Below, piece by piece: positions 7,072 through 29,466 of a stretch of 64,000 bases of DNA. The position numbers were made by a program, and so were the translations under genes. Origin of the DNA: a virus; the IMG/VR virus record IMGVR_UViG_3300010160_000025, positions 1-64,000 of that record; one strand, given 5' to 3'. The notes under the pieces are model-generated. The model was not told where the DNA came from. It did no database searches and saw only the letters and a program-made list of their open reading frames with translations. Each line of letters opens with the position of its first letter. Position 1 is the first letter of the stretch.

Positions 7072-7506
7072 ATGTCAGAACAGATTGTATGTAGTGGCGC
7101 CTTATTTTACGCTAAATCAACTCGCAGATTTCTCCTGCTACAAAAAGCAGAAGGCAAACACGCGGGTACATGGGGCTTAGTTGGTGGCACTAACATAGAA
7201 GGCGAGTCTGCGTGGCAAGGCTTGCAGAGAGAAGTTGTCGAAGAAATAGGCACTATGCCTACTATTCTAAAAACAATTCCATTAGAAACTTTTGTATCTA
7301 ACGATACTATTTTTAACTTCCATACATACTTGTGCGTTATAGACTCTGAGTTTATTCCTACACTTAGCAACGAACACAAAGGTTGGGCATGGGCAACAAT
7401 GGATCATGCTCCAAAACCTCTACACCAAGGACTTCGTAACAGTTTTGGTAACAAGATTATTCGTACAAAACTACAAACAATCTTTGATATAGTAGATTTA
7501 ATCTAA
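7072..7506 (+). CDS. Nudix hydrolase
   Basis: Nudix box GGTNIEGESAWQGLQREVVEEIG. Confidence 0.9.
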   Translation: MSEQIVCSGALFYAKSTRRFLLLQKAEGKHAGTWGLVGGTNIEGESAWQGLQREVVEEIGTMPTILKTIPLETFVSNDTIFNFHTYLCVIDSEFIPTLSNEHKGWAWATMDHAPKPLHQGLRNSFGNKIIRTKLQTIFDIVDLI

Positions 7507-7507
7507 C

Positions 7508-8065
7508 ATGTCTCAAGTTATACAATCTTCAGTAAACTTAGCCGAGCATCATCGAACATTTATCGAAACACAAGTTCTCGGAAACTACTTTCCTTGGTAT
7601 TGGGTAGGCGGACAAACTGTAACAGTTCCTCCTTCGCCGGTTCCTACAGGACAAAACTCCCCATACTTTAGTCACACTCTCCTTCGCCGCCCTGAAGACA
7701 GAGACGGCACAGCTAGCGATCGTAGCAAATACTTAGAGCCATTTATTGAAATATTCCATCAGTGGAGTTTGGAAAACAATATTGCCTATTCTAAAATATT
7801 GCGAGCAAACTTAAATCTAAATCTAGTATCATTAGATGGGTTTACTGTGCCACATGTGGATCATGATTATCCCCATTCTAACTTTATCATGTACTTAGAT
7901 GATTGCCCAGATGCTGATACTATAGTTTTTTCTGATGATTTTACACAGTACGATTCGTACAAAGCTATAAAGTATACCGCAATAACATTTAATGCACAAT
8001 GGCATGCCCATAAATATCCCAAACCAGGAACACGCAGAACCGTGTTTGTTCTAACATATATATAA
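7508..8065 (+). CDS. 2OG-Fe(II) oxygenase-fold protein
   Basis: FPWY N-terminal motif, PHVD...WHA...RRTV (HxD..H..R). Confidence 0.75.
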   Translation: MSQVIQSSVNLAEHHRTFIETQVLGNYFPWYWVGGQTVTVPPSPVPTGQNSPYFSHTLLRRPEDRDGTASDRSKYLEPFIEIFHQWSLENNIAYSKILRANLNLNLVSLDGFTVPHVDHDYPHSNFIMYLDDCPDADTIVFSDDFTQYDSYKAIKYTAITFNAQWHAHKYPKPGTRRTVFVLTYI

Positions 8066-8066
8066 G

Positions 8067-8795
8067 ATGTTTAGTTTTTTTAAAAAATCGCCGATTGTTT
8101 TTGCATGTAGTATACCTGCGGTATTACATCGATACCCAGTTGAATTAGCATCTAAAGTAAAACGCAGTTGGATTAAATCTAGTGTGGCTGCTTATAAACA
8201 TCAAGTACAGGCTATTGGAAAAACTCAAAGTGTGGCAGGCACAGCAAAGTGTCCCGGATTACATAACATAATGGGAGAAGGTTATATTCTTCGGTCATGG
8301 TTTGACTTAACTGTACAAACTACTAACGACGAGTATTCTTTTAATTGCACATTTCCGGCAGGCATGTCCAGTGTCTGCAAAGACAATAACTTTAATGAAG
8401 AACTAATATCTTCATTTTCAGGCAAACAACCAAACTTAGCAGTTCCGGTCTCTAACGGTAGTATTAAATCGTTAATCAAGATCAATACCCCATGGGCTGT
8501 AAAGATTCCCAAGGGCTGGAGTATGTTAATGTTGCCAGTTAGTTACGGCGATGATACTCGATTTACAGCAAAGCCAGGTATATTTACTGAGGGCGAGTTT
8601 TATACTATTAACCCTATAATTGAATGGCATGTTAAAAACTCTGTAGAAAAAATAGAAGCAGGTACTCCGCTATTGCAGATGATTCCAATTCGATCAGAGA
8701 AGGCGGAAGCAACTATTCAACTGTTTGACAATAGTTTTTATTTAAATCAAAAATATGCTAATTACGAAACTAATCACAAAAATGTTAGGAGCTAG
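8067..8795 (+). CDS. Conserved phage protein, KCP / GTPL.Q.IP family (dUTPase-like fold suspected)
   Basis: TAKCPG..GYILRSWFD, INTPW, PG, IEAGTPLLQMIPI; paralogue of 21598 and 23804. Confidence 0.55.
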   Translation: MFSFFKKSPIVFACSIPAVLHRYPVELASKVKRSWIKSSVAAYKHQVQAIGKTQSVAGTAKCPGLHNIMGEGYILRSWFDLTVQTTNDEYSFNCTFPAGMSSVCKDNNFNEELISSFSGKQPNLAVPVSNGSIKSLIKINTPWAVKIPKGWSMLMLPVSYGDDTRFTAKPGIFTEGEFYTINPIIEWHVKNSVEKIEAGTPLLQMIPIRSEKAEATIQLFDNSFYLNQKYANYETNHKNVRS

Positions 8796-8797
8796 TT

Positions 8798-9346
8798 ATG
8801 ATATTACCAGTTAAAAATCTACTAGGCAGTAACAAACTAATACATCTGCAACAGCAAGTTCGTGCCGAAGGCTTAAACTGGTATTACCTTCCCTATATTG
8901 CTTCAAAGACTGATACTCGCAATGATTACTCTGGAAGTTTTGGCCACTTAATATATCAGCATCAGCAAGGTGCTATTAGTGCGCTATTTGAAGTTACAAA
9001 TCAAATATTATTAGATGCACTTGATGCACAAGGACAGCGACTAGAGAAGTTGTTTCGTATACGATTAGGAATGATTACTAGAGCTCCTTATAATAAAGTT
9101 CATGCACCACATATTGACAGTGACGGGCCGCATCGGACTGGTATATTTTATCCTTATGATTCGTCGGGTGACACCATTGTATACAACGAGCAAACAGTTA
9201 GCGATACATATACTGAACAGTTTAGACATAGCCCAACAGAGAATGTATGGTTTGATTTTGATGGGCGCACATTCCATAGTTCCTCTGCGCCCACTGAGCA
9301 CGAAACTAGATTAGTATTAACTTTTAATTATCTTATATATGAATAA
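8798..9346 (+). CDS. 2OG-Fe(II) oxygenase-fold protein
   Basis: RIRLG..PHID..GDT..FDG..FHSSS.P..RLVLTFN. Confidence 0.75.
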   Translation: MILPVKNLLGSNKLIHLQQQVRAEGLNWYYLPYIASKTDTRNDYSGSFGHLIYQHQQGAISALFEVTNQILLDALDAQGQRLEKLFRIRLGMITRAPYNKVHAPHIDSDGPHRTGIFYPYDSSGDTIVYNEQTVSDTYTEQFRHSPTENVWFDFDGRTFHSSSAPTEHETRLVLTFNYLIYE

Positions 9347-9989
9347 CCCCATAGTTGAATTAAATGTGTTAGAACAGACTAACATTTTAAGAATTAAATC
9401 TGCTTTTACAAAAGAACAGTGTTTAGAAATTACTAAACAAATTCTTGATTATAAAAACAATGCACCACTTGAGTTAGGAACTAATCAAAATGCTAATCCA
9501 GGTTGTTGGTTAGGTAGGCCGCATTTTCACGGTGGTTTTTCTCCTAATATAGAACAACTACTAATAGATACTTTCAAAGAATCCTGCGATTTATATTATC
9601 AATCAATGCCTAAGCCTGCTAATATTACTAGGCCTAACATAGATAGTATCGATGCAAATAGTTTAGAAGTATGGGCTTGGGCTAATGTCAACGAGCCAGG
9701 AGCAGAGAATAGGGAACATATGCATAATGGCGGATTCATCAGCGGTGTAGCTTATTTTCAAGCAGAAAATACCGGATACATAGAGTTCATGCCCTACAAC
9801 TACACATATAAAATGACACATCAAGCATGGCCCTATACTGGCGTATCGTATTACTACCCAGAAAACGGTGACATTATATTGTTTCCAAGTTTTCTGTTGC
9901 ATAAGATTGAAAGAAATCCCAGTGATAAGCAACGAGTCAATATGGCCTTTAACGCAACGATACCCGGAGTTGGCGGTCTTGCATATTAA
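9339..9989 (+). CDS. 2OG-Fe(II) oxygenase, TIGR02466-like (HxH)
   Basis: WANVN..EHMH..SGVAY..LFPSFLLHKI..RVNMAFN. Confidence 0.8.
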   Translation: MNNPIVELNVLEQTNILRIKSAFTKEQCLEITKQILDYKNNAPLELGTNQNANPGCWLGRPHFHGGFSPNIEQLLIDTFKESCDLYYQSMPKPANITRPNIDSIDANSLEVWAWANVNEPGAENREHMHNGGFISGVAYFQAENTGYIEFMPYNYTYKMTHQAWPYTGVSYYYPENGDIILFPSFLLHKIERNPSDKQRVNMAFNATIPGVGGLAY

Positions 9990-10069: not shown

Positions 10070-12038
<1,969 letters not shown>

Positions 12039-12100: not shown

Positions 12101-12538
12101 TTATGGTTTTTCAGGCCAGCGAACTTCCCATGGGAATGTCAGTTGATTTGGTACATCTCTTAAGTCTGCTCTATACCCCTGAAACGCTATCTGTTTTTCG
12201 CTAGATAATCTCGTTTGTCCCGCTGGAGTTTCAGTCCAATCAGATGCGATTAATAGTTGATCGCGTTTTTCGCGAATTTCGGCTTCAAGCTCTTCTTGCT
12301 CTTTAGGCTGAGTTTGAAAACTGCCCATGCCGTGACTAAGTTCTCCGTACTCGCCAGCTTGTAACTTTTCTAACAGAGCTTTAGAAAACTCGTTACGTGC
12401 TCGTTTCCATGCTACGAATTCTACCGGGTTGGAGCATCCTTTAAATAGAACATGGCACCAAATAGTGTCTACAACACCGGTCATATGTTCTCTTACTGGA
12501 ACTTCAACTACATCATCAATTGTGAATACTTTTACCAT
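12101..12538 (-). CDS. Phage tail (fibre) assembly chaperone-like protein
   Basis: C-terminal REKRDQLLIASDWT...YRADLRDVPNQLTFPWEVRWPEKP is typical of Tfa/tail assembly chaperones. Confidence 0.8.
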   Translation of the reverse strand: MVKVFTIDDVVEVPVREHMTGVVDTIWCHVLFKGCSNPVEFVAWKRARNEFSKALLEKLQAGEYGELSHGMGSFQTQPKEQEELEAEIREKRDQLLIASDWTETPAGQTRLSSEKQIAFQGYRADLRDVPNQLTFPWEVRWPEKP

Positions 12539-12565: not shown

Positions 12566-12573
12566 TATTTATA
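12566..12573 (-). promoter_or_regulatory. Late promoter TATAAATA
   Basis: Perfect T4 late consensus 27 nt before ATG 12538, overlapping the upstream stop codon; GGAG SD follows. Confidence 0.7.
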
Positions 12574-13231
12574 CTTTGTATTTATGTTTCCAACCAATTC
12601 CCGGTCGGTTATCAAATGCAAATTTAGGATAAAAAGGACCGTTTTTATCAATATAGTGAAAAAATGCTTGAACTTGATAGCTACCCGGAGAGGCAACAAA
12701 CGGATCTCTCCAATGCTCAACATCACACCCTCTATAAACTATGATATCGCCCGGATTTTGTTTGATACATTGTCCAGGGTTATTTCCGCTAATAAATTCC
12801 CCGTTTGGTCCAAAACTTACTTTTGTAGATTCTTTATCAACGTACATGCCCCAGTTATAACTAGGATCAGAAACTATATAATTATTGCCAAGGCATACTG
12901 TTGTACTAATTTCGCAACTCTCTCGGTCTTTGTGTCGTTTTAGATCTGCACCAGGGCGATATACTCGATAATAGGTATACGTAGGACACAGAGATAACCC
13001 TGTATTTTTTTCCATAATGGGTAACAAGAAGTGAAGTAGTGTTTCCATTAAGGTATCAGAGTAAACAGAATGAACTCCTGCTACTTGTGCGTCTGCGCCT
13101 TCGGGAGTAAACTCACATTCTTCTTTTAACAAAGCATATTTGGTTGCTACTCTGCATATGTCGGCAGGTAATACTGATTTTAAATCCAAATAACTGTCTT
13201 GTTTAAATTGTTCAGGGTTTGTCATTTCCAT
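12569..13231 (-). CDS. 2OG-Fe(II) oxygenase-fold protein (HKDR.SCEIS family)
   Basis: PTYTYYRVY..LKRHKDRESCEISTTV..YRGCDVEHWR..QAFFHY; start 13231 preferred (AGGA SD). Confidence 0.75.
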   Translation of the reverse strand: MEMTNPEQFKQDSYLDLKSVLPADICRVATKYALLKEECEFTPEGADAQVAGVHSVYSDTLMETLLHFLLPIMEKNTGLSLCPTYTYYRVYRPGADLKRHKDRESCEISTTVCLGNNYIVSDPSYNWGMYVDKESTKVSFGPNGEFISGNNPGQCIKQNPGDIIVYRGCDVEHWRDPFVASPGSYQVQAFFHYIDKNGPFYPKFAFDNRPGIGWKHKYKV

Positions 13232-14007
13232 GGTTTTCCTAAATTCCAACACACTAGACTAAATCTAGTACCCTTTGTAACCGGCGTTACTTGGTGATGT
13301 ACATGTGAAGGGAATACTACTATAGATCCTTTTGGTCTTATTTCTGTGCATAAATGATATCGGTCAGGACGGTGAGGACCAAGATCAAATCGTAGATTAC
13401 CTCCAGAATACTGTGCCGGATCGTTAAGACTAACAGTAACACTTAGTTTTCTAATTTTACCTACCATTTGTTGATTGGTTGTTCGATGAAACTCTTCGGG
13501 CATTTCTGCGCCGCCCATGTCAATCATTGGTGTGCCGTCTTGATTTTTATGAATAGCATGAATCTCAGGATCAAAATTGTCATAAACGTGTTCATTAGCA
13601 TCAGTGTGCCAGCCATAAAATTGACCTTTACTATATTTTGTAAACTGAAAATTCTCAGTATAATCCCAATCAAAATTCCACCCTGCGCTAGCATTCGCTT
13701 TATGTATATACGGCCATATCAGTTGGTATAATGACGGATCATCTAAAAACGTCACATTTGAATCTCTAACATAAACTGATGCAGGATCTATCTTTTTTTT
13801 CTGTAGACCAGATACTGTATGGTCCTGTACAGGGACTGTACTATTTTCATTTTTTTGTCTCCAGCCGCCCACTGTTGCATTAGTGATATCTTTTCCAAAT
13901 GTTTCTTCTTGGTCGGCCATCTTATTAAGACCAATTTCAATAATTTGATCGCAAACCTCAGGCGGAATAGCCGAAATAAAAAACCAATAATAGTATTTTA
14001 AAATCAC
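13222..14007 (-). CDS. Prolyl-4-hydroxylase/PKHD-type 2OG-Fe(II) oxygenase
   Basis: QFTKY..YGWHTD..RKLSVTV..GG.L.F..VFPSHVHHQVTPVTKGTRFSLVCW. Confidence 0.88.
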   Translation of the reverse strand: MILKYYYWFFISAIPPEVCDQIIEIGLNKMADQEETFGKDITNATVGGWRQKNENSTVPVQDHTVSGLQKKKIDPASVYVRDSNVTFLDDPSLYQLIWPYIHKANASAGWNFDWDYTENFQFTKYSKGQFYGWHTDANEHVYDNFDPEIHAIHKNQDGTPMIDMGGAEMPEEFHRTTNQQMVGKIRKLSVTVSLNDPAQYSGGNLRFDLGPHRPDRYHLCTEIRPKGSIVVFPSHVHHQVTPVTKGTRFSLVCWNLGKPWK

Positions 14008-14615
14008 TTAAACAAAGCTCCGTGTACACTACCAATGATGAATTTTGCATTGCCTTTTGTAATTTTATTAATTTTAAATGCAGTGTATGATGGAAATACC
14101 AAACAAACACCCCTATCATTAATGCCGGCATTTTTGGTGTCTACATTTAAAAATTCAATCTCGCCGCCATCGTATTCAGTTGGATCGGTTAGATTAATAA
14201 TAAACGTTAGTTTTCTAGAAGGAGCCATTGGGTTTAATTCCATGTGCCAGTTATACTCATCGCCTTCTGAATATTTAAAAATTTGTGGAAAATCTTGATC
14301 TATGATTCCAAGCAAGTTAAAATCATATACATTATCGTTGGCATCTTTAGTAACTGTTCTAATATCTAAAAATGGAAAACCCTGTACATCTCCACGAAGT
14401 TTTTGTCTACTTGCTGAATGTAATGCTTTGTCCCCAACTACTTTGGTGGGCAACCATAGTTCCTCAATACAGCTATTTAAAATAGTATCGCACTGCTCAG
14501 GAGTAAAGACATCTGATTTATTAACGGATACAATATCTAAAGAGGCAAGTTTGGCAGTTACTGCGTAGTCTGTGAACTGGTCGGTATTACTTAGTTCTAA
14601 ATTTTCGTCTGACAT
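14004..14615 (-). CDS. Degenerate PKHD-type oxygenase paralogue (probable pseudoenzyme)
   Basis: Same scaffold (YNWHME, RKLTFII, EYDGGEIEF, VFPSY) but distal His replaced by Phe and the 2OG-binding Arg is absent. Confidence 0.7.
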   Translation of the reverse strand: MSDENLELSNTDQFTDYAVTAKLASLDIVSVNKSDVFTPEQCDTILNSCIEELWLPTKVVGDKALHSASRQKLRGDVQGFPFLDIRTVTKDANDNVYDFNLLGIIDQDFPQIFKYSEGDEYNWHMELNPMAPSRKLTFIINLTDPTEYDGGEIEFLNVDTKNAGINDRGVCLVFPSYTAFKINKITKGNAKFIIGSVHGALFK

Positions 14616-14725: not shown

Positions 14726-16279
14726 ATGCATATTGTTATAGTAGGAGGCGGAACCGCTGGTTGGGCAACAGCTCTATTAACAGCTAGTCGACATCCAAAT
14801 CACCAAATTACAGTAATTGAGTCTTCAAAAATTGGCATTATAGGAGTTGGTGAAAGCACCACTGGAAGATTGACAGATGTGCTGACTAATTTTATCTACG
14901 ATTTAGGCTGCGACCATGACGAATTTATCGTTGAGACTGGTGCTACCTTAAAATATGCAATCAAACACAAGGGATGGACCAGCGACATAGACGATTATTA
15001 TATTGGGCCAATCGACGGATCTTGGACCAAAGACAGCATTCCAGACCCTATGTTTAACTGGGGTATTAATAATTTAACCGATAAAGAACTGATAAATGTA
15101 TCGCAATGTGGTTTTTGGATTGACCAAGGCATGTCAAACTTCAATAAAGATAATGTGTTTGATAATTCTAGACATGCAATGCACGTAGATGCACATCTTG
15201 TGGGGAAATATTTTAAAAAAGTATGTTTAAGAAACAACAATGCTAGGCATATTGACAGCCAAGTACTAGATGTAAATCTACATCCCGAAAGCGGAGTTAT
15301 CGAATCTGTAGTTCTGCAAAATGGTGACACAATCAACGGCGATTTTTTCATTGACTGTTCTGGATTTAATAAAGTGTTGATGAATAAGTTAGGCGGTAAG
15401 TGGGTCAGCTATCAAGACAATTTACCAGTCAACACAGGACTACCATTCCAGTTAAAATATCTTGACGGAGAAATGCCAGAATCCTATACCACTGCATGGG
15501 CACAGAGTGCAGGATGGATGTGGCAAATTCCCCTGATGGATCGCAAAGGCTGCGGTTATGTGTTTGACGATAGATTTACAACTCCCGAAAAAGCACAGGA
15601 CGAGATTGAAATGCGTCTTGGTAGAAAAATAGATCCTATCAAAGTTATAAAGTTTAATACCGGCAGACAAGAATCTGCATGGATTAAAAACTGTATAACC
15701 ATTGGACTAAGTAGTGCATTTTTAGAACCATTAGAAGCTACATCTATTCATACAACAATAGTACAAGCACAGTGGTTTGTGTTTGAGTATCTAAAAGGTA
15801 CCGTAGAAGAAACTATAAACGAAGGTTCACGACGATTATACAATCAGCGTACTCGTACTATTTTTGACGATACTCGTGATTTTCTAGTAATGCATTACAT
15901 GGGCAATCGACGCGATAGTGAGTTTTGGAAGTACATTGGAACAGGAGCAACTAAAACTGAGTTTGTAGAAAATTTAATGTTATCAGCTAAAACAAAAATG
16001 CCAACTGCCGCAGATTTTCCGCAGTATAGTGGAAGTGCAGGTTGGGCGTTATACAGTTATGTAATGGCTGGTTTAAATTTACTAAACAAGAAAGGTGCAT
16101 GGGATAACGAGATGAGTCACAAGTTACCAAAGTACGGAGAATTGCGTTCATTATCTACAGAGATGCATTATAATATGCAAGACTTATGGACGTCTGAGAT
16201 GAAAAATAGACATTCATATAATGATTTTATAAAACATTTTAGACAACTACGGAAACAATATGGCTTTTCAGATATCTAA
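14726..16279 (+). CDS. Flavin-dependent (tryptophan-halogenase family) halogenase 1
   Basis: GGGTAG, GVGEST, ATLK (catalytic Lys), FIDCSGF, GWMWQIP, FLEPLEATSI. Confidence 0.9.
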   Translation: MHIVIVGGGTAGWATALLTASRHPNHQITVIESSKIGIIGVGESTTGRLTDVLTNFIYDLGCDHDEFIVETGATLKYAIKHKGWTSDIDDYYIGPIDGSWTKDSIPDPMFNWGINNLTDKELINVSQCGFWIDQGMSNFNKDNVFDNSRHAMHVDAHLVGKYFKKVCLRNNNARHIDSQVLDVNLHPESGVIESVVLQNGDTINGDFFIDCSGFNKVLMNKLGGKWVSYQDNLPVNTGLPFQLKYLDGEMPESYTTAWAQSAGWMWQIPLMDRKGCGYVFDDRFTTPEKAQDEIEMRLGRKIDPIKVIKFNTGRQESAWIKNCITIGLSSAFLEPLEATSIHTTIVQAQWFVFEYLKGTVEETINEGSRRLYNQRTRTIFDDTRDFLVMHYMGNRRDSEFWKYIGTGATKTEFVENLMLSAKTKMPTAADFPQYSGSAGWALYSYVMAGLNLLNKKGAWDNEMSHKLPKYGELRSLSTEMHYNMQDLWTSEMKNRHSYNDFIKHFRQLRKQYGFSDI

Positions 16280-17520: not shown

Positions 17521-17525
17521 GAAAA

Positions 17526-17533
17526 TATTTATA
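17526..17533 (-). promoter_or_regulatory. Late promoter TATAAATA (overlapping TATAAACA on + strand)
   Basis: Perfect consensus 5 nt before ATG 17520 in a 29-nt divergent gap. Confidence 0.65.
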
Positions 17534-17549
17534 AACATCGGCCTTTAAA

Positions 17550-20244: not shown

Positions 20245-20922
20245 TCATGCATATATCTCATATATTGGATAGTTTGCGTTTTTTTTAAAAACTGTAAAAC
20301 TATTTTGTATTTTTTTGTGCGGTTCTACAAACGTTATCATTTCAAACTCGTCACTTAGCTTGTTTTTTAGTTTAATCTCTGCTAAAAACAAGCGACCAAA
20401 AGCATTACCTGCTGTACTATGTATGATTATAATGCCACCAGGTAGTAACTGTTTGTAGGCACAATCAAACAAGTAAGCATACTCGGCGCCACTGCCAAAG
20501 TCTAACCAAATAAAGTCATATTTGTTGTGCTGAGTACTTATAGTTTTTAAAAACTCAAGACCTTCGTCAGTAACAAACTCAACTAATGTGTTTAAGTTTT
20601 CTTGTTTTAATATTTCAGGAACATCGTCAACTGCATAATCTTGATTAAATGTATCAACAACGGTAAATTTAGGATTATATCTGTTTTCCATAAACGCATT
20701 ATCTTTGTTGTTTATAAAAAATTCGTTGGGTTGTTTACTGTAATCTTCTTTTTTGATATCGTCGATTGCCTTTGCTAAAAATAAAGTTGAGTATCCTGCA
20801 CCAATTTCTAATATATTTTGAGGACGACAGCATCTAATCATTGAATACAAAAATACAGAAACTTCTTCTGTTAAGAAGTTTTTTGATAAAAGTTCAGTGT
20901 ATCGTGTATTGATTAATGACAT
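20245..20922 (-). CDS. Class I SAM-dependent methyltransferase (O-methyltransferase-like)
   Basis: ILEIGAGYST, YDFIWLD, LLPGGIIIIH. Confidence 0.8.
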   Translation of the reverse strand: MSLINTRYTELLSKNFLTEEVSVFLYSMIRCCRPQNILEIGAGYSTLFLAKAIDDIKKEDYSKQPNEFFINNKDNAFMENRYNPKFTVVDTFNQDYAVDDVPEILKQENLNTLVEFVTDEGLEFLKTISTQHNKYDFIWLDFGSGAEYAYLFDCAYKQLLPGGIIIIHSTAGNAFGRLFLAEIKLKNKLSDEFEMITFVEPHKKIQNSFTVFKKNANYPIYEIYA

Positions 20923-20923: not shown

Positions 20924-21505
20924 TTATAGGGGTTCTAAGTTAATATTAAGTATTACTCGTCTATTACTATTGATTGGATTACTAGCAGTATGATATCTAA
21001 GTCCGTTAAATGCTATTAGCCTATTTGCCTTAGGTGAAATACGTTGTTTAGTAGTAAATGTTGTTGGCCTATCCAATATTGTAAATTGTTGATTAAAAAA
21101 CCAAGTATCGCCATCAGAGTCGTTAAGATAAAAGATTAATACATCGTGGGGACACGGGTAATCTACATGTGGAATATTATAATTTTCAGATGTAAATCCA
21201 ACCTTTGGAGTTTTTTGACTTAGTCTAGCTCTCACTAGATGATCCCTTGTGTATCCTAATTCGTCTTCTAACCGGGCCATAAAAATATCAAGCCATTTAT
21301 ATGTAAAACTCTCAATACCAGATTGTCGGTCATATATTATATGGTGCAGGCCGTCTGTTTCAATGGCCATTGGATCTATTACATGATTTTCTTCGGGAGC
21401 GATTGATACCGTTTCAGCATAGAACCATGGAAACTCTTCGCTAAGAACCGCGCGGTGCCATCGATTAAAGTCGTCCAGTGGCAAAAAATTATCTATTATG
21501 TGCAT
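20924..21505 (-). CDS. 2OG-Fe(II) oxygenase-fold protein
   Basis: IIDNFL, FPWFY, PHVD, YLNDSDGDT, FNGLRYHTASNP, RVILNIN. Confidence 0.8.
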   Translation of the reverse strand: MHIIDNFLPLDDFNRWHRAVLSEEFPWFYAETVSIAPEENHVIDPMAIETDGLHHIIYDRQSGIESFTYKWLDIFMARLEDELGYTRDHLVRARLSQKTPKVGFTSENYNIPHVDYPCPHDVLIFYLNDSDGDTWFFNQQFTILDRPTTFTTKQRISPKANRLIAFNGLRYHTASNPINSNRRVILNINLEPL

Positions 21506-21597: not shown

Positions 21598-22323
21598 ATG
21601 TTTGATATTTTTTTTAAAAGAAAGAAAATAGTTATAGACTGCTTTACTACCAACATAAATGCTCATAAGCTATTTCCTATACAACGTGCCGCAAGATTTT
21701 ATCCAGAATGGTGGAAGCAATTACCAAAAAGTGAAATGATAGAAAATAATGTTGGTTTACTAGTTGAGCGGCCAACAATAAAATCGTGTAGCGGGATTAA
21801 TAACTTGTATCAAGAAGGATTTGTGATCCCTTTATGGAGCGATGTAGTTATACAAACACGTGGCTTGAACTATTTGTTTACATTTGCTGATGGTGTTAGT
21901 TCGTTACCTTATCACAATTTAGACCAGTTAGGTTCAGATTTTTACGGATTTCTAAATATCAAATTTGATTCTCCTTGGAGAATACAAGAAAAAACAGGTG
22001 TTAAGTTTATCTTTATACAGCCTAGTTGGAATAATCCGATAGATTTGTTTAACAGCCATGCACTTCCGGGAGTTGTTGAATTTAAACATCAGCACACTAG
22101 CAATATAAACATGCTGATGTCTCGCCAACAACGATATCAGTGGGATGCTGGAAGGCCGTTGGCCCATGTAATACCAATTACTGATCAAGATATAGAAGTC
22201 AAAACACATCTAGTCGGCGAAGTTGAAGCTAGAGCTATGCAAGTTTTTAACCAACGTTCTCCATTTTTTTCAGGTTCGTACAAAAAGACTAAACAAATTA
22301 ATAAAGGAGTATGTCCGTTTTGA
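21598..22323 (+). CDS. KCP/dUTPase-like-fold family protein
   Basis: PEWWKQLP, TIKSCSG..GFVIPLWSD, SPW, LPG, AGRPLAHVIP, C-terminal CPF. Confidence 0.55.
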   Translation: MFDIFFKRKKIVIDCFTTNINAHKLFPIQRAARFYPEWWKQLPKSEMIENNVGLLVERPTIKSCSGINNLYQEGFVIPLWSDVVIQTRGLNYLFTFADGVSSLPYHNLDQLGSDFYGFLNIKFDSPWRIQEKTGVKFIFIQPSWNNPIDLFNSHALPGVVEFKHQHTSNINMLMSRQQRYQWDAGRPLAHVIPITDQDIEVKTHLVGEVEARAMQVFNQRSPFFSGSYKKTKQINKGVCPF

Positions 22324-23807
22324 AAATATCTAGCATAGTAATAGTTGGTGGTGGAACTAGCGGATGGCTCACAGCCGCTTACTTGTCAAATGCCTGTCCG
22401 GAAGTCTCTATAACAGTAATTGACAAAGAGATAGGAACTCCCATTGGAGTTGGGGAAGCTACCTTATTAAATTTTAAACCATTCATGGAAGAATGTGGAT
22501 TTGAAGTTGATGATTGGTTTTCTAAAATAGATGCTGGTTATAAATCTGGGATTTTATTCACAAACTGGTGTAAATCAAATCACGAAATTTGGCACCCGTT
22601 TTATAAAGGAAATCGAACAGTATCGATTGGCAATACAAAAAACAAACCGGTATACATGCACGATGTATGGTCAAAAGCACAACATCTTGATTTTAAGAAA
22701 TACAGTTTAGGCTACTACGAAGCATCTATTGATCACAATGTTGTTGATTCGTCAAGTTTGCACAACTATGCTTTTCATGTTGACTGCGGCAAGTTGGTTA
22801 CATACATTCAAGAAAAAATAAAAGATAAAATTAATATTATTCGTTCAGACGTTGTCAATGTTGTAGTTAATGATAGCGGCGGGGTCAAGCATTTAGAACT
22901 AAAAAATGGCAGTACAATCACTACTGATTTGTTTGTTGACTGTACTGGGTTTAAAAATCTATTAAGAGCTCCTAAAAAACGAGTTGATTTGACGGATCGC
23001 TTATTTGTCAATACCGCAGTGGTATGCCAAGTTCCTTATAAAGATCGCCCTGAAGAATTTAAACCATATGCTGTTTGTGATGCAGTGGATCATGGATGGA
23101 TATGGAAGATAGGTGTTAGTAGTCGTATAGGTAGCGGGTTAGTGTTTAACCGTGATCTTACCAGTATCGATGAAGCCAAACAATGTTTTGCAGATTACTG
23201 GAAAGGCCGAGTAGATATAGATAAAATTCGAGTGATTGATTGGACTCCGTTCTATAATAAAGATCAGTGGGAAGATAATGTTGTCAGTATTGGACTAAGT
23301 GCTGGATTTATTGAGCCACTGGAAAGTACAGGAATAGGGTTAATCACTGCTGGTATCACACAATTAAACAATGTTGTTAGAGAACAATATTATGACCAAG
23401 ACAATGTTGATTTTTTTAATCTACAAATGAAATTATATTTTGAAGACTGTGTTGATTTTGTATCAGGACATTATGCTAACAACAACAGAACAAGTAAGTT
23501 TTGGAATTTTGTCAAAGATAAATTTGAGCCTTCTGAAAAAATGAAATATTTTATTGAACATCTTGCTGACCCCACTATCAATATACCCTACAATGGCAAG
23601 TTTAACTTGATATTTGCAGGGGTTAACTGGTCGCTGATGTTATTACAACTTGGTTATCCTGTTGCTCCAAGAGATATCGATATCACAGATGAGCAAGCTG
23701 AAGAACTATTGATCAAGAACTATTTAAAATATGAAAAACATAAACATGTATGGTCTCGACCACATAGTTTAGAAGTAGATAGATTATCAGAAATAAGTAA
23801 ATTATGA
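22311..23807 (+). CDS. Flavin-dependent halogenase 3
   Basis: GGGTSG, GVGEAT, DAGYKSGI, FVDCTGF, GWIWKIG, FIEPLESTGI. Confidence 0.88.
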   Translation: MSVLKISSIVIVGGGTSGWLTAAYLSNACPEVSITVIDKEIGTPIGVGEATLLNFKPFMEECGFEVDDWFSKIDAGYKSGILFTNWCKSNHEIWHPFYKGNRTVSIGNTKNKPVYMHDVWSKAQHLDFKKYSLGYYEASIDHNVVDSSSLHNYAFHVDCGKLVTYIQEKIKDKINIIRSDVVNVVVNDSGGVKHLELKNGSTITTDLFVDCTGFKNLLRAPKKRVDLTDRLFVNTAVVCQVPYKDRPEEFKPYAVCDAVDHGWIWKIGVSSRIGSGLVFNRDLTSIDEAKQCFADYWKGRVDIDKIRVIDWTPFYNKDQWEDNVVSIGLSAGFIEPLESTGIGLITAGITQLNNVVREQYYDQDNVDFFNLQMKLYFEDCVDFVSGHYANNNRTSKFWNFVKDKFEPSEKMKYFIEHLADPTINIPYNGKFNLIFAGVNWSLMLLQLGYPVAPRDIDITDEQAEELLIKNYLKYEKHKHVWSRPHSLEVDRLSEISKL

Positions 23808-24541
23808 AAATAGTCAAATGGTCGTTCAATACCAGTCACGAATGGGATGTTGACCACCCGGAGTGCATTAAACCATTAGTAGATGGAGATTATTATCCGT
23901 TCAAACATCTAACTAAAGAAGCCACTGCTGTTAGAAAAGGCGCAACATTTTTAAAATGTCCGGCGCATACTGATTTTTTAAAAAATACATTTATATTCTG
24001 TGCTCCGTTTGACATAACAATAGAGCTTGATATAAAAGATGAAGGTGCAAGTAGGATATTTTGTGAAAACATTACCCAAGAACAATTTGAAAAATTAATT
24101 GATATGCGATTTTTATACAATGTTGACCGAGGTATTAATCCTTATCCGATTGTGGGTATTGATTGGTTGACTACTTTTCAAACTGACGAGTCTATGCTGT
24201 TACAAGTTTTTCCAGCTTTCATGCATCGTAATGATTTTACCGAAAAAGCAACAGTAGTCCCGGGGGAGTACGATATTAGCAAATGGACTAGGCCCGTTGA
24301 ATGTGTTTTTGAAGTTCGATCAAATGTTGAAAAGATTGTTATTAAAAAAGGTGATGCTATTTCTTATTTTAAATTTCACAGTGATGAAATCGTTAAACTT
24401 GAAAATCAACCAACACCGTGGCCAGATATACATCAGTGTAATGAAATACGTAATCAAAATGTATTCCGTCCTTTGAAAGAAAGATATCAGGCATTGGTTG
24501 AAGACAATAAAAAAAGGTGTCCGTATGATAAGCAAGATTAA
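23804..24541 (+). CDS. KCP/dUTPase-like-fold family protein
   Basis: FLKCPA..NTF..CAPFD, VPGEYDISKWTRP, IKKGDAISY, C-terminal RCPY. Confidence 0.55.
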   Translation: MKIVKWSFNTSHEWDVDHPECIKPLVDGDYYPFKHLTKEATAVRKGATFLKCPAHTDFLKNTFIFCAPFDITIELDIKDEGASRIFCENITQEQFEKLIDMRFLYNVDRGINPYPIVGIDWLTTFQTDESMLLQVFPAFMHRNDFTEKATVVPGEYDISKWTRPVECVFEVRSNVEKIVIKKGDAISYFKFHSDEIVKLENQPTPWPDIHQCNEIRNQNVFRPLKERYQALVEDNKKRCPYDKQD

Positions 24542-26087
24542 TAATATTGTAGTTGTTGGTGGTGGTAGTGCCGGTTGGATAGTGGCTACTACTCTGATAT
24601 CTCAGTTGCCCAATACTAAAATTACAGTGATTGAAAGTCCAAACATACCAACTGTTGGGGTAGGGGAAAGCACTATCGGTGGCATACGTGCATGGCTAAG
24701 ATTAGTTGGAATAAAAGACAATGATTTTATGTCTGCTTGTGATGCCAGTTACAAGCTAGCCATCAAATTTAATAATTTTTACAAACAAGATTCAGGGGCT
24801 TGGTATTATCCGTTTGGCGCTCCCTATTTGAAAGATACTATGCACGGGAGAGATGACTGGTTTATTAAAAAAACGCTGTATCCTAACACCCCAACAGAAG
24901 ATTATGCAAACACGTATTATTCTCAAATGGCTCTAGTTAATTCTAATACAATTCTTACAAACAATTTAGATCTAGATGGTTTTGATTTTTATAATCATAC
25001 AGCATTTCATTTTGATGCGGCCAAATTGGGAATATGGTTACGTGATCAATATTGTAAACCAAAAGGTATTAATCATATCGCCGCTGAAGTTGTAGAAATA
25101 ACACAGGATGATTCTGGAATTAAAGAACTTATATTGAGTTCAGGTGAAACAGTAACAGCTGATCTGTTTGTGGACTGTACTGGATTTAAATCATTGCTAC
25201 TGGGAGATGCACTGCAAGTTCCATTCAAAAGTTATGAACACCTATTGCCTAACAATCGTGCATGGGCCACTAGAATTGAATATACTGATAAAGAAAAACA
25301 ATTGGACTCAGTTACAGACTGTACTGCGTTAGATAACGGCTGGGTTTGGAATATACCTCTATGGAGTAGGATTGGCACTGGCTACGTTTACAGTGATAAA
25401 TTTATTAGTCCAGAACAAGCCAAACTAGATTTTATTACACATTTGCAATCAAAAGGGTACGATACTAAACATTGCGAATTTAGAGATATTAATATACGTG
25501 TAGGCATGCATGAAAAATTATGGGTTAAAAATGTAGTGGCTCTAGGTCTCAGTGCGGCTTTTATTGAACCATTAGAAAGTACTGGATTACTTACTACGCA
25601 CGATTTTGCTAAAACTTTGTGTAATGTGTTATTACGTGGTAGTGTTAGCCAATGGGATCGAGACGAGTTTAATTTAAAATGTGAAGATGAGTTTAACTAC
25701 TGGGCACAATTTGTAAGTATGCATTATGCATTGAGTCATCGAGACGATAGTGAATACTGGAGAGCCATTAGTAGGAAATCATTTACAGACTTAACACCAT
25801 TTGTTAATAAAATGCAAACTCAAGGTTTGTATTTTCAAACTATGTATCAAAAAAACTTTGTAAAATTTTTCCAAGACGACAACGGTATTAATTGCTTGGC
25901 GGCAGGAATGAACTGGAATCCCAACGACTATGTAACATTACGCAGTATATTTGCTGTTGGTACAGATCTAAGAGAAGAGTTTGGTCTAATTATTATGCGA
26001 TTAACTGAAAGACAAACAAAATGGAAAGAGGCTGTAAAAACAGCCCCTAGTCTATATCAGTATCTTAAAGATAAGTTTTATAGTTAA
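24525..26087 (+). CDS. Flavin-dependent halogenase 4
   Basis: GGGSAG, GVGEST, CDASYKLAI, FVDCTGF, GWVWNIP, FIEPLESTGL; start ATG 24525 after AAGGTG. Confidence 0.92.
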   Translation: MISKINNIVVVGGGSAGWIVATTLISQLPNTKITVIESPNIPTVGVGESTIGGIRAWLRLVGIKDNDFMSACDASYKLAIKFNNFYKQDSGAWYYPFGAPYLKDTMHGRDDWFIKKTLYPNTPTEDYANTYYSQMALVNSNTILTNNLDLDGFDFYNHTAFHFDAAKLGIWLRDQYCKPKGINHIAAEVVEITQDDSGIKELILSSGETVTADLFVDCTGFKSLLLGDALQVPFKSYEHLLPNNRAWATRIEYTDKEKQLDSVTDCTALDNGWVWNIPLWSRIGTGYVYSDKFISPEQAKLDFITHLQSKGYDTKHCEFRDINIRVGMHEKLWVKNVVALGLSAAFIEPLESTGLLTTHDFAKTLCNVLLRGSVSQWDRDEFNLKCEDEFNYWAQFVSMHYALSHRDDSEYWRAISRKSFTDLTPFVNKMQTQGLYFQTMYQKNFVKFFQDDNGINCLAAGMNWNPNDYVTLRSIFAVGTDLREEFGLIIMRLTERQTKWKEAVKTAPSLYQYLKDKFYS

Positions 26088-27205
26088 TACTTGACAATAA
26101 CAACACCCGATCCACCGTCTGCACCATGTTGTCCGCCGCCACCGCCACCACCAGTATTAGCACCGCCAGTACCGCCTCGTGCTGTAGGTTGTCCGTTTTG
26201 ACCGGCATTAAACGACATACCGCCACCTACACCGTGTCTAGTTGGAGGAGCACCATATGGTCCAGCATGGTGACTCGATCCACCACCGCCACCACCAATG
26301 CCGCCATTATAGTGGCCAAACCCGTAGTGTGCGCCACCTGCGCCACCACCACCAAAATACATAACGCTGTTTAATATATCACTGGCAGCACCTGCACCAC
26401 CATTGTGGTCACAGCCGTTAAAACTGCTTCGACGATTAGTTCGTGTATCTGGAGCATCGGTGCCGCGGCCACCTGCACCACCACCGCCACCGCCCAGGTG
26501 AGCGTTGTCAGTTTCTTGATTGAAACGAACACCACTTCCGCCTGGAAATCCTTGACCCGCAGTACCAATACCCCCATAACTGCGAGTACGGTTATCAACG
26601 CCGTCACCAGTATTAGCGCCGCCGCCTCCTGTTGCACCAGAGCGACCCGGGGTATCAGTACGACCAATGGCACCCGGACTAGAATGACTCCAACTGCCAC
26701 CTCCACCGCCACCCAGTGCAGTTAATGATCCAAATACTGAGTTACCGCCATTTGGTCCTGCCACAGTAGGACTACGTCCGCCACCGCCGCCACCTACTGT
26801 GACAGGAACTCCGCTACCGTTTGTTACTGCATAGGATCGACTTTGAATGACTCCGCCACCGCCGCCACCACCGCACCAGTCATAGCCACTTGAGCCACCA
26901 CCACCGACTACTAGTACTTGCACATTTCCACTAAATGTTGGCGTAAATGTAGCAGTACCAACTGTGCTAAAAATATGTACAATACCGTTAGTCGTGTAAA
27001 ATATGCTGTCTCCGCCTGTGCCGATTAAGCCTGGTGAAAAGCCAGTTACTGGTCTCCATGCGGCACCGTCATAAAACTCTAAAGTATTAGATCCACTGGC
27101 TGTGCTGAATCGAATCTTTCCGGCAGCGCCTGCTGTACTTTGCGTTTGATTTGGCAAAGTCACTGCGGTAGTATTGTTAAACGTGGTATTTTGTAATATT
27201 GCCAT
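26084..27205 (-). CDS. Glycine-rich (polyglycine-II-type) adhesin-like virion protein 3
   Basis: VLVVGGGG, multiple G5-G7 runs, GQGFPGGSGVRFN, C-terminal GGSGVVIVKY. Confidence 0.7.
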   Translation of the reverse strand: MAILQNTTFNNTTAVTLPNQTQSTAGAAGKIRFSTASGSNTLEFYDGAAWRPVTGFSPGLIGTGGDSIFYTTNGIVHIFSTVGTATFTPTFSGNVQVLVVGGGGSSGYDWCGGGGGGGVIQSRSYAVTNGSGVPVTVGGGGGGRSPTVAGPNGGNSVFGSLTALGGGGGGSWSHSSPGAIGRTDTPGRSGATGGGGANTGDGVDNRTRSYGGIGTAGQGFPGGSGVRFNQETDNAHLGGGGGGAGGRGTDAPDTRTNRRSSFNGCDHNGGAGAASDILNSVMYFGGGGAGGAHYGFGHYNGGIGGGGGGSSHHAGPYGAPPTRHGVGGGMSFNAGQNGQPTARGGTGGANTGGGGGGGQHGADGGSGVVIVKY

Positions 27206-27218
27206 TTTTTATTCTCTA

Positions 27219-28367
27219 TTAGTATCTTACGATCACAATGCCTGCACCGCCGGCTGATCCATGGTTGCCATATTGGTACTGTGTTCCGCCGCCGCCGCCA
27301 CCTGTGTTGGCTCCACCATCACCTGCATTATTCTGTGCTGTACATGCGCCACCTGCATTTAGTGCCATGCCGCCACCTGGGCCATTAAAAAAGTTTGCGC
27401 CGGGCTGACGTGGGTTTCCGTGTTGTATACCAGCACCTCCACCTCCACCAATACCGCCTGCGGCTGCTGTAGTTCCGTTAGCTTGGTGAATAGCACCACC
27501 ACCACCGCCGCCCCAGTATAGGGTATAACCTAAAATATCACTGGCTGCTCCTGGTCCGCCATGTCCAAGACCGCCTTCGTGTGCATCGTCTGCGGCATTC
27601 ATGCCAGCTCCGCCAGCTCCGCCACCACCACCATTTGTGTGAGTATTATCGCCTTGGTTATTAAATCTCACACCACTTCCACCTGGGAAGCCTTGACCTT
27701 GAACGCCGAGGCCGCCAAAACATCGTTGACGGCTATCTGCAGGACCGTAACCGTATGGGTTTCCAGATCCATGGTCAGTAGTACATCCACCACCACCCGA
27801 ACCACCAGGTTGTCCTGCTTGACCGTCCCATGATCCGCCAGCTCCGCCACCATAACTAGTGATTGAACCAAATACTGAATTACTGCCAGTGTTTCCTCTA
27901 TTTGGAAAACTTGGACGAGGGGCTCCTGCTCCTACTGTAATAGGAATACCTGTGCCGCTTGATACTGAATATGCTCTGTTATAGATTACTCCACCACCAC
28001 CACCACCGCCACCAAGGTGAGATCCACCACTTCCGCCACCTGCGATTACTAACACTTCTACGGTGCCAGTGAATGCCGGTGTAAATGTAAAGTTACCCGT
28101 TGAGGTAAACATGTGTACTACGCCACTGGCTCTGTTGGCATTATTTGCAGTTGAATACATGATAGTATCACCGCCTGTGCCGATTGACCCTTTACTGATA
28201 CCAGTAACAGGTTTCCATCCAGTAGCATCATAAAATTCTAGTAAGTTACTTGCAGTATTAACACGAATCATGCCGGCTGTAGGCGAGCCCGGTCTATTAC
28301 CAGTAGTACTAATCGGTAATGTTACAGATCCAGTTTGATTAAAACTTGTTGTTTGTAGTTGTGCCAT
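27219..28367 (-). CDS. Glycine-rich adhesin-like virion protein 2
   Basis: Paralogue: RPGSPTAGMIRVNT N-module, GQGFPGGSGVRFN, GAASDIL, GGAGIVIVRY. Confidence 0.7.
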   Translation of the reverse strand: MAQLQTTSFNQTGSVTLPISTTGNRPGSPTAGMIRVNTASNLLEFYDATGWKPVTGISKGSIGTGGDTIMYSTANNANRASGVVHMFTSTGNFTFTPAFTGTVEVLVIAGGGSGGSHLGGGGGGGGVIYNRAYSVSSGTGIPITVGAGAPRPSFPNRGNTGSNSVFGSITSYGGGAGGSWDGQAGQPGGSGGGGCTTDHGSGNPYGYGPADSRQRCFGGLGVQGQGFPGGSGVRFNNQGDNTHTNGGGGGAGGAGMNAADDAHEGGLGHGGPGAASDILGYTLYWGGGGGGAIHQANGTTAAAGGIGGGGGAGIQHGNPRQPGANFFNGPGGGMALNAGGACTAQNNAGDGGANTGGGGGGTQYQYGNHGSAGGAGIVIVRY

Positions 28368-28380
28368 TTATTCTTCTCTG

Positions 28381-29466
28381 TTAGTATCTTACGACAACAA
28401 TGCCGGAACCGCCAACGTTTCCACCACCACCGCCACCACCGCCACCACCGCCTGTGTTGGTTCCACCTGCACCGCCGCCAGTGCCGTGTGAGCCGTTTTG
28501 TGTAGCATCACCGCCTCGATTTAGTGCTTGTCCACCACCAAATCCGCAAGCTCTTGGTAATGGAGTTCCAGGATAATAGTGGGTAGCTCCGCCACCACCA
28601 CCACCAATACCGCCTTCGTCACCACCGCCGTCACAAATATGTGCGCCTGATGCGCCGCCTCCGCCCCAGTACAATACTTCACCTAAAATATCACTGGCTG
28701 CTCCGGGGCCACCTTGACTACTCATTCTGCTGTTACAATCAGGGGCATCACATCCGGGGCCACCTGCTCCGCCGCCACCGCCGGCGTGGTGTGTATTTTC
28801 ACCGTCATCGTTGTAACGTACACCTGATCCGCCTGGAAATCCCTGTCCTTGAGTTCCTAATCCGCCTGAAACACGGAAACGACTGCCGTCTGCACTAGTA
28901 CATCCTGCTCCGCCACCTGATCCGCCATTTCCGCCTGGGTTAGTTTGGTCCCAATAGCCCGAGCCGCCGCCGCCATAACTGGTGATTGATCCAAATGTTG
29001 AGTTTCCGCCGGCAGCAACTGCGGCAGGTGTACCTTGGTTTGAATTTCCTGCTCCACCGCCACCTACACTGAGAGAAATTCCTACGCCTGCACTAACTGG
29101 GTAAGAGCGTTGGAATACCATTCCGCCACCGCCACCACCGCCGTTCCAACCACCACCACTGTTGCCTCCTCCGCCGATTACTAGTACCTGTACATATCCA
29201 GTGTGCGCTGGAGTAAATGTTGCAGAGCCCACAGCGGTAAATGTATGACAGATTCCGCCGTTGCGTAATTGAGTAGTGCCGCCGCTGCCGATAATACCGT
29301 TACTGTATCCAGTTACTGGTCGCCAGTTTGTACCGTCGTAATATTCCAATAACCCAAAATCAGTATTGTAACGCATCATTCCGGATGATGGACTTGCTGG
29401 TCGCTGTGCTGTTGAGCCTGACGGTAATGTTAAGTCGGTAAATGAGGATGCTTGTAGCTGTGCCAT
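28381..29466 (-). CDS. Glycine-rich adhesin-like virion protein 1
   Basis: Paralogue: LPSGSTAQRP..GMMRYNT, GQGFPGGSGVRYN, GAASDIL, GGSGIVVVRY. Confidence 0.7.
   Translation of the reverse strand: MAQLQASSFTDLTLPSGSTAQRPASPSSGMMRYNTDFGLLEYYDGTNWRPVTGYSNGIIGSGGTTQLRNGGICHTFTAVGSATFTPAHTGYVQVLVIGGGGNSGGGWNGGGGGGGMVFQRSYPVSAGVGISLSVGGGGAGNSNQGTPAAVAAGGNSTFGSITSYGGGGSGYWDQTNPGGNGGSGGGAGCTSADGSRFRVSGGLGTQGQGFPGGSGVRYNDDGENTHHAGGGGGAGGPGCDAPDCNSRMSSQGGPGAASDILGEVLYWGGGGASGAHICDGGGDEGGIGGGGGGATHYYPGTPLPRACGFGGGQALNRGGDATQNGSHGTGGGAGGTNTGGGGGGGGGGGNVGGSGIVVVRY

Follow-up and report, generated by a model that had tools for sequence, protein, structure and literature searches.

The first 64 kb of a 152.8-kb viral record (IMG/VR record IMGVR_UViG_3300010160_000025; the 64,000-nt stretch analysed is referred to as the window) carries an island of halogenase and oxygenase genes at 7.1-26.1 kb, between the gp15 neck gene and the tail-fibre module. 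The island adjoins three Gly_rich_2 paralogues encoding glycine-rich (Gly-rich) proteins, a fibre gene with an S74 domain and giant fibre genes (Table 1). Judged by its genes, the source is an uncultured marine T4-like myovirus. We tentatively propose that the island enzymes covalently tailor the fibre-tip proteins of the phage itself as the virion is assembled. The linkage of halogenases to Gly-rich genes, the late-type motif shared by fibre and island units and the fold of the Gly-rich proteins together make this the best single reading. That the linkage reflects a tie between enzyme and substrate is an inference, as are the residues targeted and any effect on host recognition.

In the proposed scheme, exposed side chains of Trp, Tyr or His would be halogenated by the four halogenases with flavin reduced by the host. 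Side chains would receive hydroxyl groups from the Fe(II)/2-oxoglutarate-dependent (Fe/2OG) oxygenases, and some of these groups would in turn be capped by the methyltransferase. The three adjoining Gly-rich proteins would be the prime candidate substrates, and the large fibres might also be modified. It is possible, if doubtful, that Gly-rich fibre-tip proteins are in general the natural substrates of VirX1-type viral halogenases and of the Fe/2OG oxygenases that accompany them.

A scan of IMG/VR with a halogenase alignment yielded 80 loci with 43-75% identity to hal4, the last halogenase of the island; many of the contigs were short. A Gly-rich open reading frame (ORF) was located 0-6.2 kb from the halogenase in 42 of the 80 loci (median ~1.7 kb). 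When only loci with enough flank to judge were considered, 43 of 52 were linked, the window being counted. We estimate that one Gly-rich cluster placed at random in a ~180-kb genome would have a ~7% chance of lying no more than 6 kb from a given gene. The linked state was found in every major clade of the tree, with ~6 changes, and the linked loci were arranged in three ways: Gly-rich genes upstream and co-directional (29), downstream and convergent (12) or upstream and divergent (2). The sequence-only reading of this DNA had expected such co-occurrence across genomes, and it was borne out, as Gly-rich fibre-type genes very often lie beside VirX1-type halogenases in several arrangements. Its expectation that the numbers of halogenases and adhesins co-vary failed: rho was -0.04 where both flanks were complete (n 15), and a weak 0.24 (p 0.03) overall.

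The gene order fibre, Gly-rich, halogenase(s), oxygenase array and neck was found in the isolates Syn9, S-RIM44, P-RSM6, P-TIM40 and Sf-CH11; in Sf-CH11 five enzymes lie between two PF21722 genes. Metagenomic relatives of the phage retain its exact layout together with orthologues of all four halogenases. Among the other IMG/VR loci, the enzymes of L084 are sandwiched by two Gly_rich_2 genes, and in L064 and L093 the halogenase stands amid Gly-rich ORFs. Three loci, L028, L085 and L093, have the halogenase beside or between Gly-rich and tail-fibre genes without any oxygenase; in L028 and L085 it follows straight after the Gly-rich genes. In pelagiphage HTVC008M, a Gly-rich gene is beside a four-oxygenase block and a halogenase is between gp16 and gp17. 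There (L014, 9421-11380), an oxygenase and the halogenase lie between the small and large terminase genes. The small ORFs between Gly-rich genes and halogenases in Syn9, S-RIM44, P-TIM40 and P-RSM6 had no Pfam match. In P-SSM2 (L015, 8377-9917) the halogenase is divergent from two genes labelled 'L-shaped tail fiber protein assembly', of which the smaller (8377-8724) is the sole one with a Pfam LtfC match, a weak, sub-threshold one.

The three Gly-rich proteins, gly1 to gly3, share 47-49% mutual identity and consist of a conserved N-terminal module of ~55 residues followed by a 30%-glycine domain. A search of the PDB by sequence with a Gly-rich protein found no matching chain. In the AlphaFold model of gly2 (predicted local distance difference test score, pLDDT, 82.6), the closest folds in Foldseek were the cyanophage Pam3 fibre (7YPX), then Bxb1 tail-tip proteins (9D93) and the ALK/LTK glycine-rich domain. 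E values were 1e-4 to 6e-3 for the phage hits and 0.05-0.5 for ALK/LTK, and template modelling (TM) scores were modest (0.33-0.48). Searching with tblastn recovered only the N-terminal 50 residues of the Gly-rich protein owing to low-complexity filtering, and a hidden Markov model (HMM) built from alignment A1 was therefore used instead. This profile of 39 homologues detected the 'tail fiber assembly/gp38' genes of Sf-CH11, P-TIM40, S-RIM44, Syn9 and Syn33. The gp38 adhesin of T2 and S16 has a receptor-binding domain of the polyglycine-lattice type, and its gene follows gp37 as the Gly-rich genes of the window follow the fibre gene. S16 gp38 was not among the Foldseek matches of the gly2 model. 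On the strength of the model it is reasonable to regard the Gly-rich proteins as putative fibre-tip, receptor-binding-type proteins, in keeping with the earlier description of them as fibre-like adhesins.

The loop strings listed in that description (YDWC, SWSH, SWDG, GWNG, YWDQ, SHHAGPY, AHICD and NPYGYGP) are all present in the Gly-rich proteins. One loop follows a conserved mid-domain GGGGG(G/S) run and carries W180 in gly2. In the halogenase-adjacent Gly-rich ORFs of the IMG/VR loci (L017-L096), the residue at this position was Trp in 13, His in 8 and Tyr in 6, i.e. 27 of 39. W180 is invariant in the window's clade and conserved in Sf-CH11, whereas other cyanophage homologues lack it. The ~55-residue N-terminal module was also found in other cyanophage structural proteins and may be a shared docking module. 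Within the window, it (phrog_1325, 2803, 25721) recurs at the C-terminal end (residues 880-943) of the baseplate wedge protein encoded at 51552-54434 and at the N-terminus of a further structural protein, the product of 57361-58257.

The sequence-only reading placed late-type promoters at the starts of the island units. This stood for the core of the motif and not for its strict form. The core ATAARTA was counted 10 times in the intergenic DNA (1.2 kb), where 2.0 would be expected, and no shuffle out of 2000 gave a count as high; the strict T4 late promoter TATAAATA was not enriched, with 3 sites against 8.5 expected. ATAARTA precedes the giant fibre genes and the baseplate genes in the correct orientation, and it also precedes the island units at 12538, 14615, 14726, 21505 and 21598. 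In Syn9, ATAAATA was located 20-33 nt before the fibre gene gp34, the Gly-rich gene gp38 and gp40, with which the halogenase cluster begins. The presence of the motif before both fibre genes and island units supports late co-expression, and transcription of the island probably falls in the late phase along with that of the virion genes. The stop codons of the convergent genes hal4 and gly1 overlap in AGTTAA (26082-26087), the overlap of last halogenase and Gly-rich gene having been noticed before, and it leaves no space for a terminator between the opposing late transcription units. Elsewhere in the window, a 137-nt GC-rich leader (54435-54571) lies between an ATAAATA motif and the gene for a 960-residue baseplate wedge protein.

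The island enzyme set is not new; its gene content makes it an enlarged member of a published Syn9-type cluster. Iyer, Abhiman, de Souza and Aravind (2010; PMC2938197) described in Syn9 an array of ten dioxygenases in tandem that belong to five or more families, together with two tryptophan halogenases and a conserved-Cys protein of the dUTPase fold, and proposed synthesis of a halogenated secondary metabolite. In bacterial operons, they proposed co-encoded tail-collar and glycine-rich proteins as dioxygenase substrates, a proposal not extended to the phage cluster. The window shares with the Syn9/Syn10 neighbourhood (gp41-gp54) the multi-family tandem Fe/2OG dioxygenases, with homologues of Syn9 gp45, gp48, gp51, gp53 and gp54, halogenases of the Trp type with intact Rossmann motif and catalytic Lys, the conserved-Cys dUTPase-fold protein, the T4-like backbone and the placement just after fibre and Gly-rich genes. 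It differs in having four halogenases instead of two and three copies of the dUTPase-fold gene, and in adding GroES/GroEL, a fibre chaperone, a methyltransferase, a NUDIX hydrolase and a prolyl-4-hydroxylase (P4H)-type pair. Its strands are mixed, and the enzymes are convergent with the fibre genes rather than co-directional. A JmjC homologue (Syn9 gp49), which Iyer et al. treated as a member of the array and not a requirement, was not detected among the window proteins (BLASTP at E 1e-4; no JmjC/cupin Pfam hit). What is new in the present analysis is the view of the linkage on the halogenase tree, the negative count test and the dUTPase-fold model.

Two published leads fit the tailoring reading without proving it: a 2OG gene was among the few non-structural genes mutated during host adaptation of S-TIM4 (PMC6224464), and a 2OG oxygenase was detected in the virion proteome of S-SCSM2R (PMC12801897). 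Our literature searches found no paper that proposes halogenation of phage fibres or that links a cyanophage prolyl hydroxylase with a structural protein. The sequence-only reading had called the system a pathway like those for ribosomally synthesised and post-translationally modified peptides (RiPPs), which holds only as an analogy. MibH (PDB 5UAO), a RiPP peptide halogenase, is alike in concept, in that a flavin enzyme halogenates a ribosomally made polypeptide and not a free amino acid; it was among the weakest PDB matches of all four halogenases. Compared with RiPP pathways, the candidate substrates here are structural proteins of 360-380 residues, and no small leader/core precursor, RiPP recognition element or protease domain was found among the Pfam and PHROG hits at 7-30 kb.

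All four halogenases have kept GxGxxG, the catalytic Lys column and EPLE (alignment A2); the WxWxIP motif varies to WxFxIP in hal2 and to WxWxIG in hal3. Their pairwise identities of 30-34% indicate that they are old paralogues and not recent copies. Hal4 alone is of the VirX1 subtype, with full-length similarity and both flavin adenine dinucleotide (FAD) and catalytic motifs: it aligned with VirX1 (PDB 6QGM) over residues 13-528 at E 1e-106, shares 38% identity with the Syn9 orthologue and retains GxGxxG, the Lys79 column, WxWxIP and EPLES. Hal1 to hal3 are no nearer to VirX1 than to bacterial Trp halogenases; hal2 is 47% identical to the S-H38 enzyme and 40% to that of P-SSM2. The PDB neighbours of hal1 to hal3 were considered as a clue to substrate, and these proteins were about equidistant to the Trp 5-, 6- and 7-halogenases, with no specific neighbour among solved structures, so that no substrate was indicated.

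The 11 Fe/2OG-oxygenase-fold genes of the island fall into at least five sequence groups (three PF13759, two PF13640, four phrog_274, and phrog_2954 and phrog_1644), and HxD...H motifs were seen. Five of them (9339, 13222, 14004, 16903 and 19636, genes being cited by first coordinate) passed the Pfam cut-off, all with E <= 3e-7. Two others, 20924 and 19008, gave sub-threshold Pfam matches, and 7508, 8798, 16260 and 12569 gave none even at E 5. These six were assigned through PHROG matches and HxD...H(...R) motifs, their PHROG families being mislabelled 'endonuclease V', 'ferrochelatase' or 'minor coat protein'. Four of the six (8798, 12569, 16260 and 20924) match Syn9 gp51/53/54 by BLAST. The 7508 protein shows a PHVDHD...WHAH...RR motif when aligned with Syn9 gp51/53, and the 19008 protein had no direct BLAST match in Syn9 at E 1e-4. 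A twelfth oxygenase-like gene, of 152 residues, is directly downstream of the major head gene and is matched by the island oxygenases; S-B64 repeats this order, with head protein, hypothetical protein and oxygenase. Collagen-like G-X-Y repeats, possible targets of P4H-type enzymes, were not found in any structural ORF.

Three genes encode conserved-Cys proteins of the dUTPase-fold type. The 8067 and 21598 proteins are homologous to Syn9 gp43 (33% identity for 8067), and the 23804 protein was assigned by its predicted model (pLDDT 86.7), which has a dUTPase-like fold plus two additional C-terminal helices; DUF6065 is a lead for this protein. The three copies share the motif K-C-P-[GA] ... hydrophobic strand ... 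D.

The surroundings agree with a T4-like phage. The backbone includes gp15 (PF16724), a T4-type major head protein (phrog_138) and baseplate wedge proteins, and window proteins are 25-47% identical to their cyanomyovirus counterparts. The whole block had no match by megablast against 50,697 phage records. CheckV completeness of the 152.8-kb record was 42%, so the genome is probably jumbo-sized; psbA, looked for as a clue to the host, is absent from these 153 kb (42% of the genome). Two giant ORFs, of 3454 and 3109 residues, lie within the window, and a further one of 5165 residues is found beyond it in the same genome (C1:87339-102836, +). All four halogenases, 11 of the 12 oxygenases and the sole three Gly-rich ORFs of the 152.8 kb are within 7-29.5 kb. 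The gene content read from sequence alone, namely an enzyme block inside the virion-structural region (here with gp15 on one side and fibre genes on the other) with four halogenases, 11 oxygenase-fold genes, a methyltransferase, a full chaperonin (PF00166, PF00118), a fibre chaperone (PF16778) and three Gly-rich genes, was recovered throughout, as was the lack of a scaffold-building enzyme, there being no non-ribosomal peptide synthetase, polyketide synthase or sugar enzyme among the Pfam hits. That inventory was incomplete, having overlooked the NUDIX gene (7072) and the dUTPase-fold genes (8067, 21598 and 23804).

Table 1. Genes of the enzyme island, its borders and other cited features of the window.
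Feature	Position	Strand	Evidence and remarks
gp15-type tail sheath stabiliser, left border of island	5712..7058	+	PF16724 E 4.5e-23
NUDIX hydrolase	7072..7506	+	PF00293 E 7e-15
Fe/2OG-oxygenase-fold, phrog_274 ('endonuclease V' label)	7508..8065	+	phrog_274 E 3e-23
Conserved-Cys protein, Syn9 gp43 family (dUTPase-fold family of Iyer et al.)	8067..8795	+	phrog_7084 E 1e-37
Fe/2OG-oxygenase-fold, phrog_274	8798..9346	+	PHROG, Syn9 homology, motif
2OG-Fe(II) oxygenase, PF13759 type	9339..9989	+	E 6.5e-17
GroES-type co-chaperonin	10070..10384	+	PF00166 E 8.5e-28
GroEL-type chaperonin	10371..12038	+	PF00118 E 2e-70
Tail fibre assembly chaperone	12101..12538	-	PF16778 E 1.8e-15; ATAAATA upstream at 12566 and 12579
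Fe/2OG-oxygenase-fold, Syn9 gp54 family ('ferrochelatase' label)	12569..13252	-	phrog_2954 E 1e-41; HKD...EHWR
2OG-Fe(II) oxygenase, prolyl-4-hydroxylase type	13222..14007	-	PF13640 E 1.2e-13
2OG oxygenase, paralogue of 13222 (27% identity)	14004..14615	-	PF13640 E 3e-7; ATAAGTA upstream at 14641
hal1, flavin-dependent halogenase	14726..16279	+	PF04820 E 9e-91; motifs intact; ATAAATA upstream at 14693
Fe/2OG-oxygenase-fold, phrog_274	16260..16916	+	PHROG, motif
2OG-Fe(II) oxygenase, PF13759 type	16903..17538	-	E 3e-20
hal2, flavin-dependent halogenase, P-SSM2 / S-H38 type	17550..19022	+	PF04820 E 1e-95
Fe/2OG-oxygenase-fold, PHROG of Syn9 'minor coat protein' gp46/gp52	19008..19634	-	phrog_1644 E 2e-25; HRD...H
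2OG-Fe(II) oxygenase, PF13759 type	19636..20217	-	E 8e-22
S-adenosylmethionine-dependent methyltransferase (Methyltransf_24)	20245..20922	-	PF13578 E 2.7e-9
Fe/2OG-oxygenase-fold, phrog_274	20924..21505	-	PHROG, motif; TATAAATA upstream at 21513
Conserved-Cys protein, Syn9 gp43 family	21598..22323	+	phrog_7084 E 2e-21; overlaps hal3; ATAAGTA upstream at 21548
hal3, flavin-dependent halogenase	22311..23807	+	PF04820 E 2e-88
dUTPase-like-fold protein, invariant Cys52/Pro53	23804..24541	+	Between hal3 and hal4, overlapping both
hal4, flavin-dependent halogenase, VirX1 type	24498..26087	+	PF04820 E 2e-107
gly1, Gly-rich fibre-tip-type protein	26084..27205	-	PF21722; phrog_2295
gly2, Gly-rich fibre-tip-type protein	27219..28367	-	PF21722 E 6e-15
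gly3, Gly-rich fibre-tip-type protein	28381..29466	-	PF21722
Fibre protein, C-terminal S74 intramolecular chaperone domain	29469..30623	-	PF13884 E 5.5e-12; many tail-fibre PHROGs
Giant 3454-residue ORF	31026..41390	-	Protein at same position in relatives carries CBM_5_12; GATAAATA upstream
12th 2OG-oxygenase-like gene, outside island	61016..61474	-	phrog_81 E 1e-25
T4-type major head protein	61535-62707		phrog_138

The GroES and GroEL genes adjoin each other, as Cpn10 and Cpn60 of a Group I chaperonin. The best matches of GroEL (~51%) were bacterial-type GroL records within the phage collection, and the best named phages (~46%) were Vibrio and Bacteroides phages; no cyanophage was among the top matches listed. 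In the compact sister-clade islands L020 and L035, the order is gp15, NUDIX, oxygenases and two halogenases, then convergent Gly-rich and S74 genes, and GroES/GroEL, the fibre chaperone and the methyltransferase are absent. These genes are thus add-ons and not core parts, and the chaperonin and fibre chaperone probably aid virion assembly generally rather than being fixed parts of the module. The NUDIX gene stays beside gp15 in both loci, with 74-78% identity.

Several points weigh against tailoring of fibre tips. No modified residue has been observed anywhere, and at least 15 enzymes are many for the tailoring of few proteins. Trp is scarce in the Gly-rich proteins (0.8-1.1%), and the invariant W180 may simply be structural. 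The absence of chaperones and methyltransferase from L020 and L035 counts on the same side, and so do the three dUTPase-fold proteins and the NUDIX hydrolase, which hint at nucleotide-like ligands. Shared ancestry inflates the linkage counts, and a large part of the linkage may stem from inheritance and not from repeated selection. The association also breaks down in both directions: Syn33 has a Gly-rich homologue and no halogenase in the 24 kb examined, the Gly-rich fold (recognised by fold) occurs in Pam3 and Bxb1 without a nearby halogenase, and the halogenases of S-B64, P-SSM2 and S-SSM7 are distant from Gly-rich genes. Finally, cyanomyoviruses are known to collect accessory genes in the stretch from the fibre genes to gp13-15. 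Since fibre-tip genes are the last in fibre operons, adjacency in such a hot spot could stem from insertion at the 3' end.

The readings were ranked with tailoring of fibre tips first, followed by small-molecule chemistry from an accessory-gene hot spot, editing of the host surface and nucleotide chemistry. In the second of these, which is possible, the enzymes would be morons in the permissive fibre-to-neck region that act late on small molecules or host metabolites, and their adjacency to Gly-rich genes would be positional. The product could be a halogenated, hydroxylated metabolite derived from amino acids (Iyer et al. 2010), or consumption of 2-oxoglutarate could steer host nitrogen signalling, the oxygenases having been proposed to adjust 2-oxoglutarate levels (Sullivan et al. 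2010). The cluster type has thus already been published with exactly these readings. In S-SSM7 the interval from fibre to gp13-15 holds sugar genes (heptose, epimerase), a carbamoyltransferase gene and a halogenase without a Gly-rich gene, which speaks for the hot spot and against tailoring, as does the finding that halogenase and Gly-rich gene numbers do not co-vary. Halogenases are also located beside gp46/47 in S-B64 and beside gp33 in S-SSM5 and S-MS29, and bacterial relatives of the enzyme families occur in TonB/SapC loci without virion genes (PMC2938197). VirX1 of Syn10 is trimeric, has a large open site, prefers iodide and has no known natural substrate, and it halogenates many small aromatics in vitro (PMC8407142). 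Against the hot spot, the island has no scaffold-building enzyme, and 2-oxoglutarate consumption needs neither five or more oxygenase families nor a halogenase. The Gly-rich linkage survives inversions and non-identical backgrounds, and it is also found in contigs without oxygenases. Moreover, a halogenase stands between Gly-rich genes in Sf-CH11, L064, L084 and L093, which simple insertion at a boundary does not explain.

It is improbable that the late enzymes instead edit the host surface, altering envelope or receptor precursors so as to block superinfection or prevent new virions from adhering to debris. In that case the genes would move together with receptor-binding genes as both serve the same interface, and this tie to host recognition would explain the fibre-tip linkage without an enzyme-substrate relation; the sugar genes at the S-SSM7 locus are of the lipopolysaccharide type. 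Against this, both enzyme classes, flavin halogenases and Fe/2OG oxygenases, work in the cytoplasm; among the island genes we saw neither a transporter or signal peptide nor an envelope-precursor enzyme, and literature searches gave no precedent.

In the last reading, the dUTPase-fold proteins and the NUDIX hydrolase would bind nucleotides, and the target of the halogenases and oxygenases would be a base or a nucleotide-like, heteroaromatic precursor, with the Cys perhaps activating pyrimidine C5 in the manner of thymidylate synthase. The top PDB folds of the 23804 model were solely dUTPase and dCTP deaminase, its Cys52-Pro53 is invariant, and of the three copies, two overlap with a halogenase gene. 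Members of the family also stand beside halogenases in Syn9, S-RIM44, P-TIM40 and 20 of the 80 IMG/VR loci, and the sole VirX1 kinetics quoted in PMC8407142 are for 6-azaindole, a purine-like heterocycle. This recurrence and the NUDIX gene lend a nucleotide-type substrate some plausibility, but it is the most improbable of the readings, as the fold matches are weak (E 1e-3 to 1e-2, TM 0.3-0.5), the family accompanies only a quarter of the halogenase loci, where Gly-rich genes accompany half, the island has no base-modification, glycosylase or DNA-transferase genes, and NUDIX is tied to gp15 and not to the halogenases in the compact islands.

Genes for Trp halogenases and 2OG oxygenases rank with the commonest 'auxiliary' genes in marine T4-like phages, their substrates have been elusive for more than 15 years, and VirX1 has found use as a biocatalyst with no natural role known for it. 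The linkage with Gly-rich genes on the halogenase tree makes the substrate question testable in phages now in culture. Should the fibre proteins not be the targets, the linkage still marks a host-range cassette with co-moving parts. If fibre-tip tailoring is true, it would provide the first natural substrate for a viral halogenase, and phage biology would gain its first case of halogenated virion proteins. The receptor-binding surfaces of marine phage virions would then be halogenated and hydroxylated, and host recognition would be tuned or diversified post-translationally.

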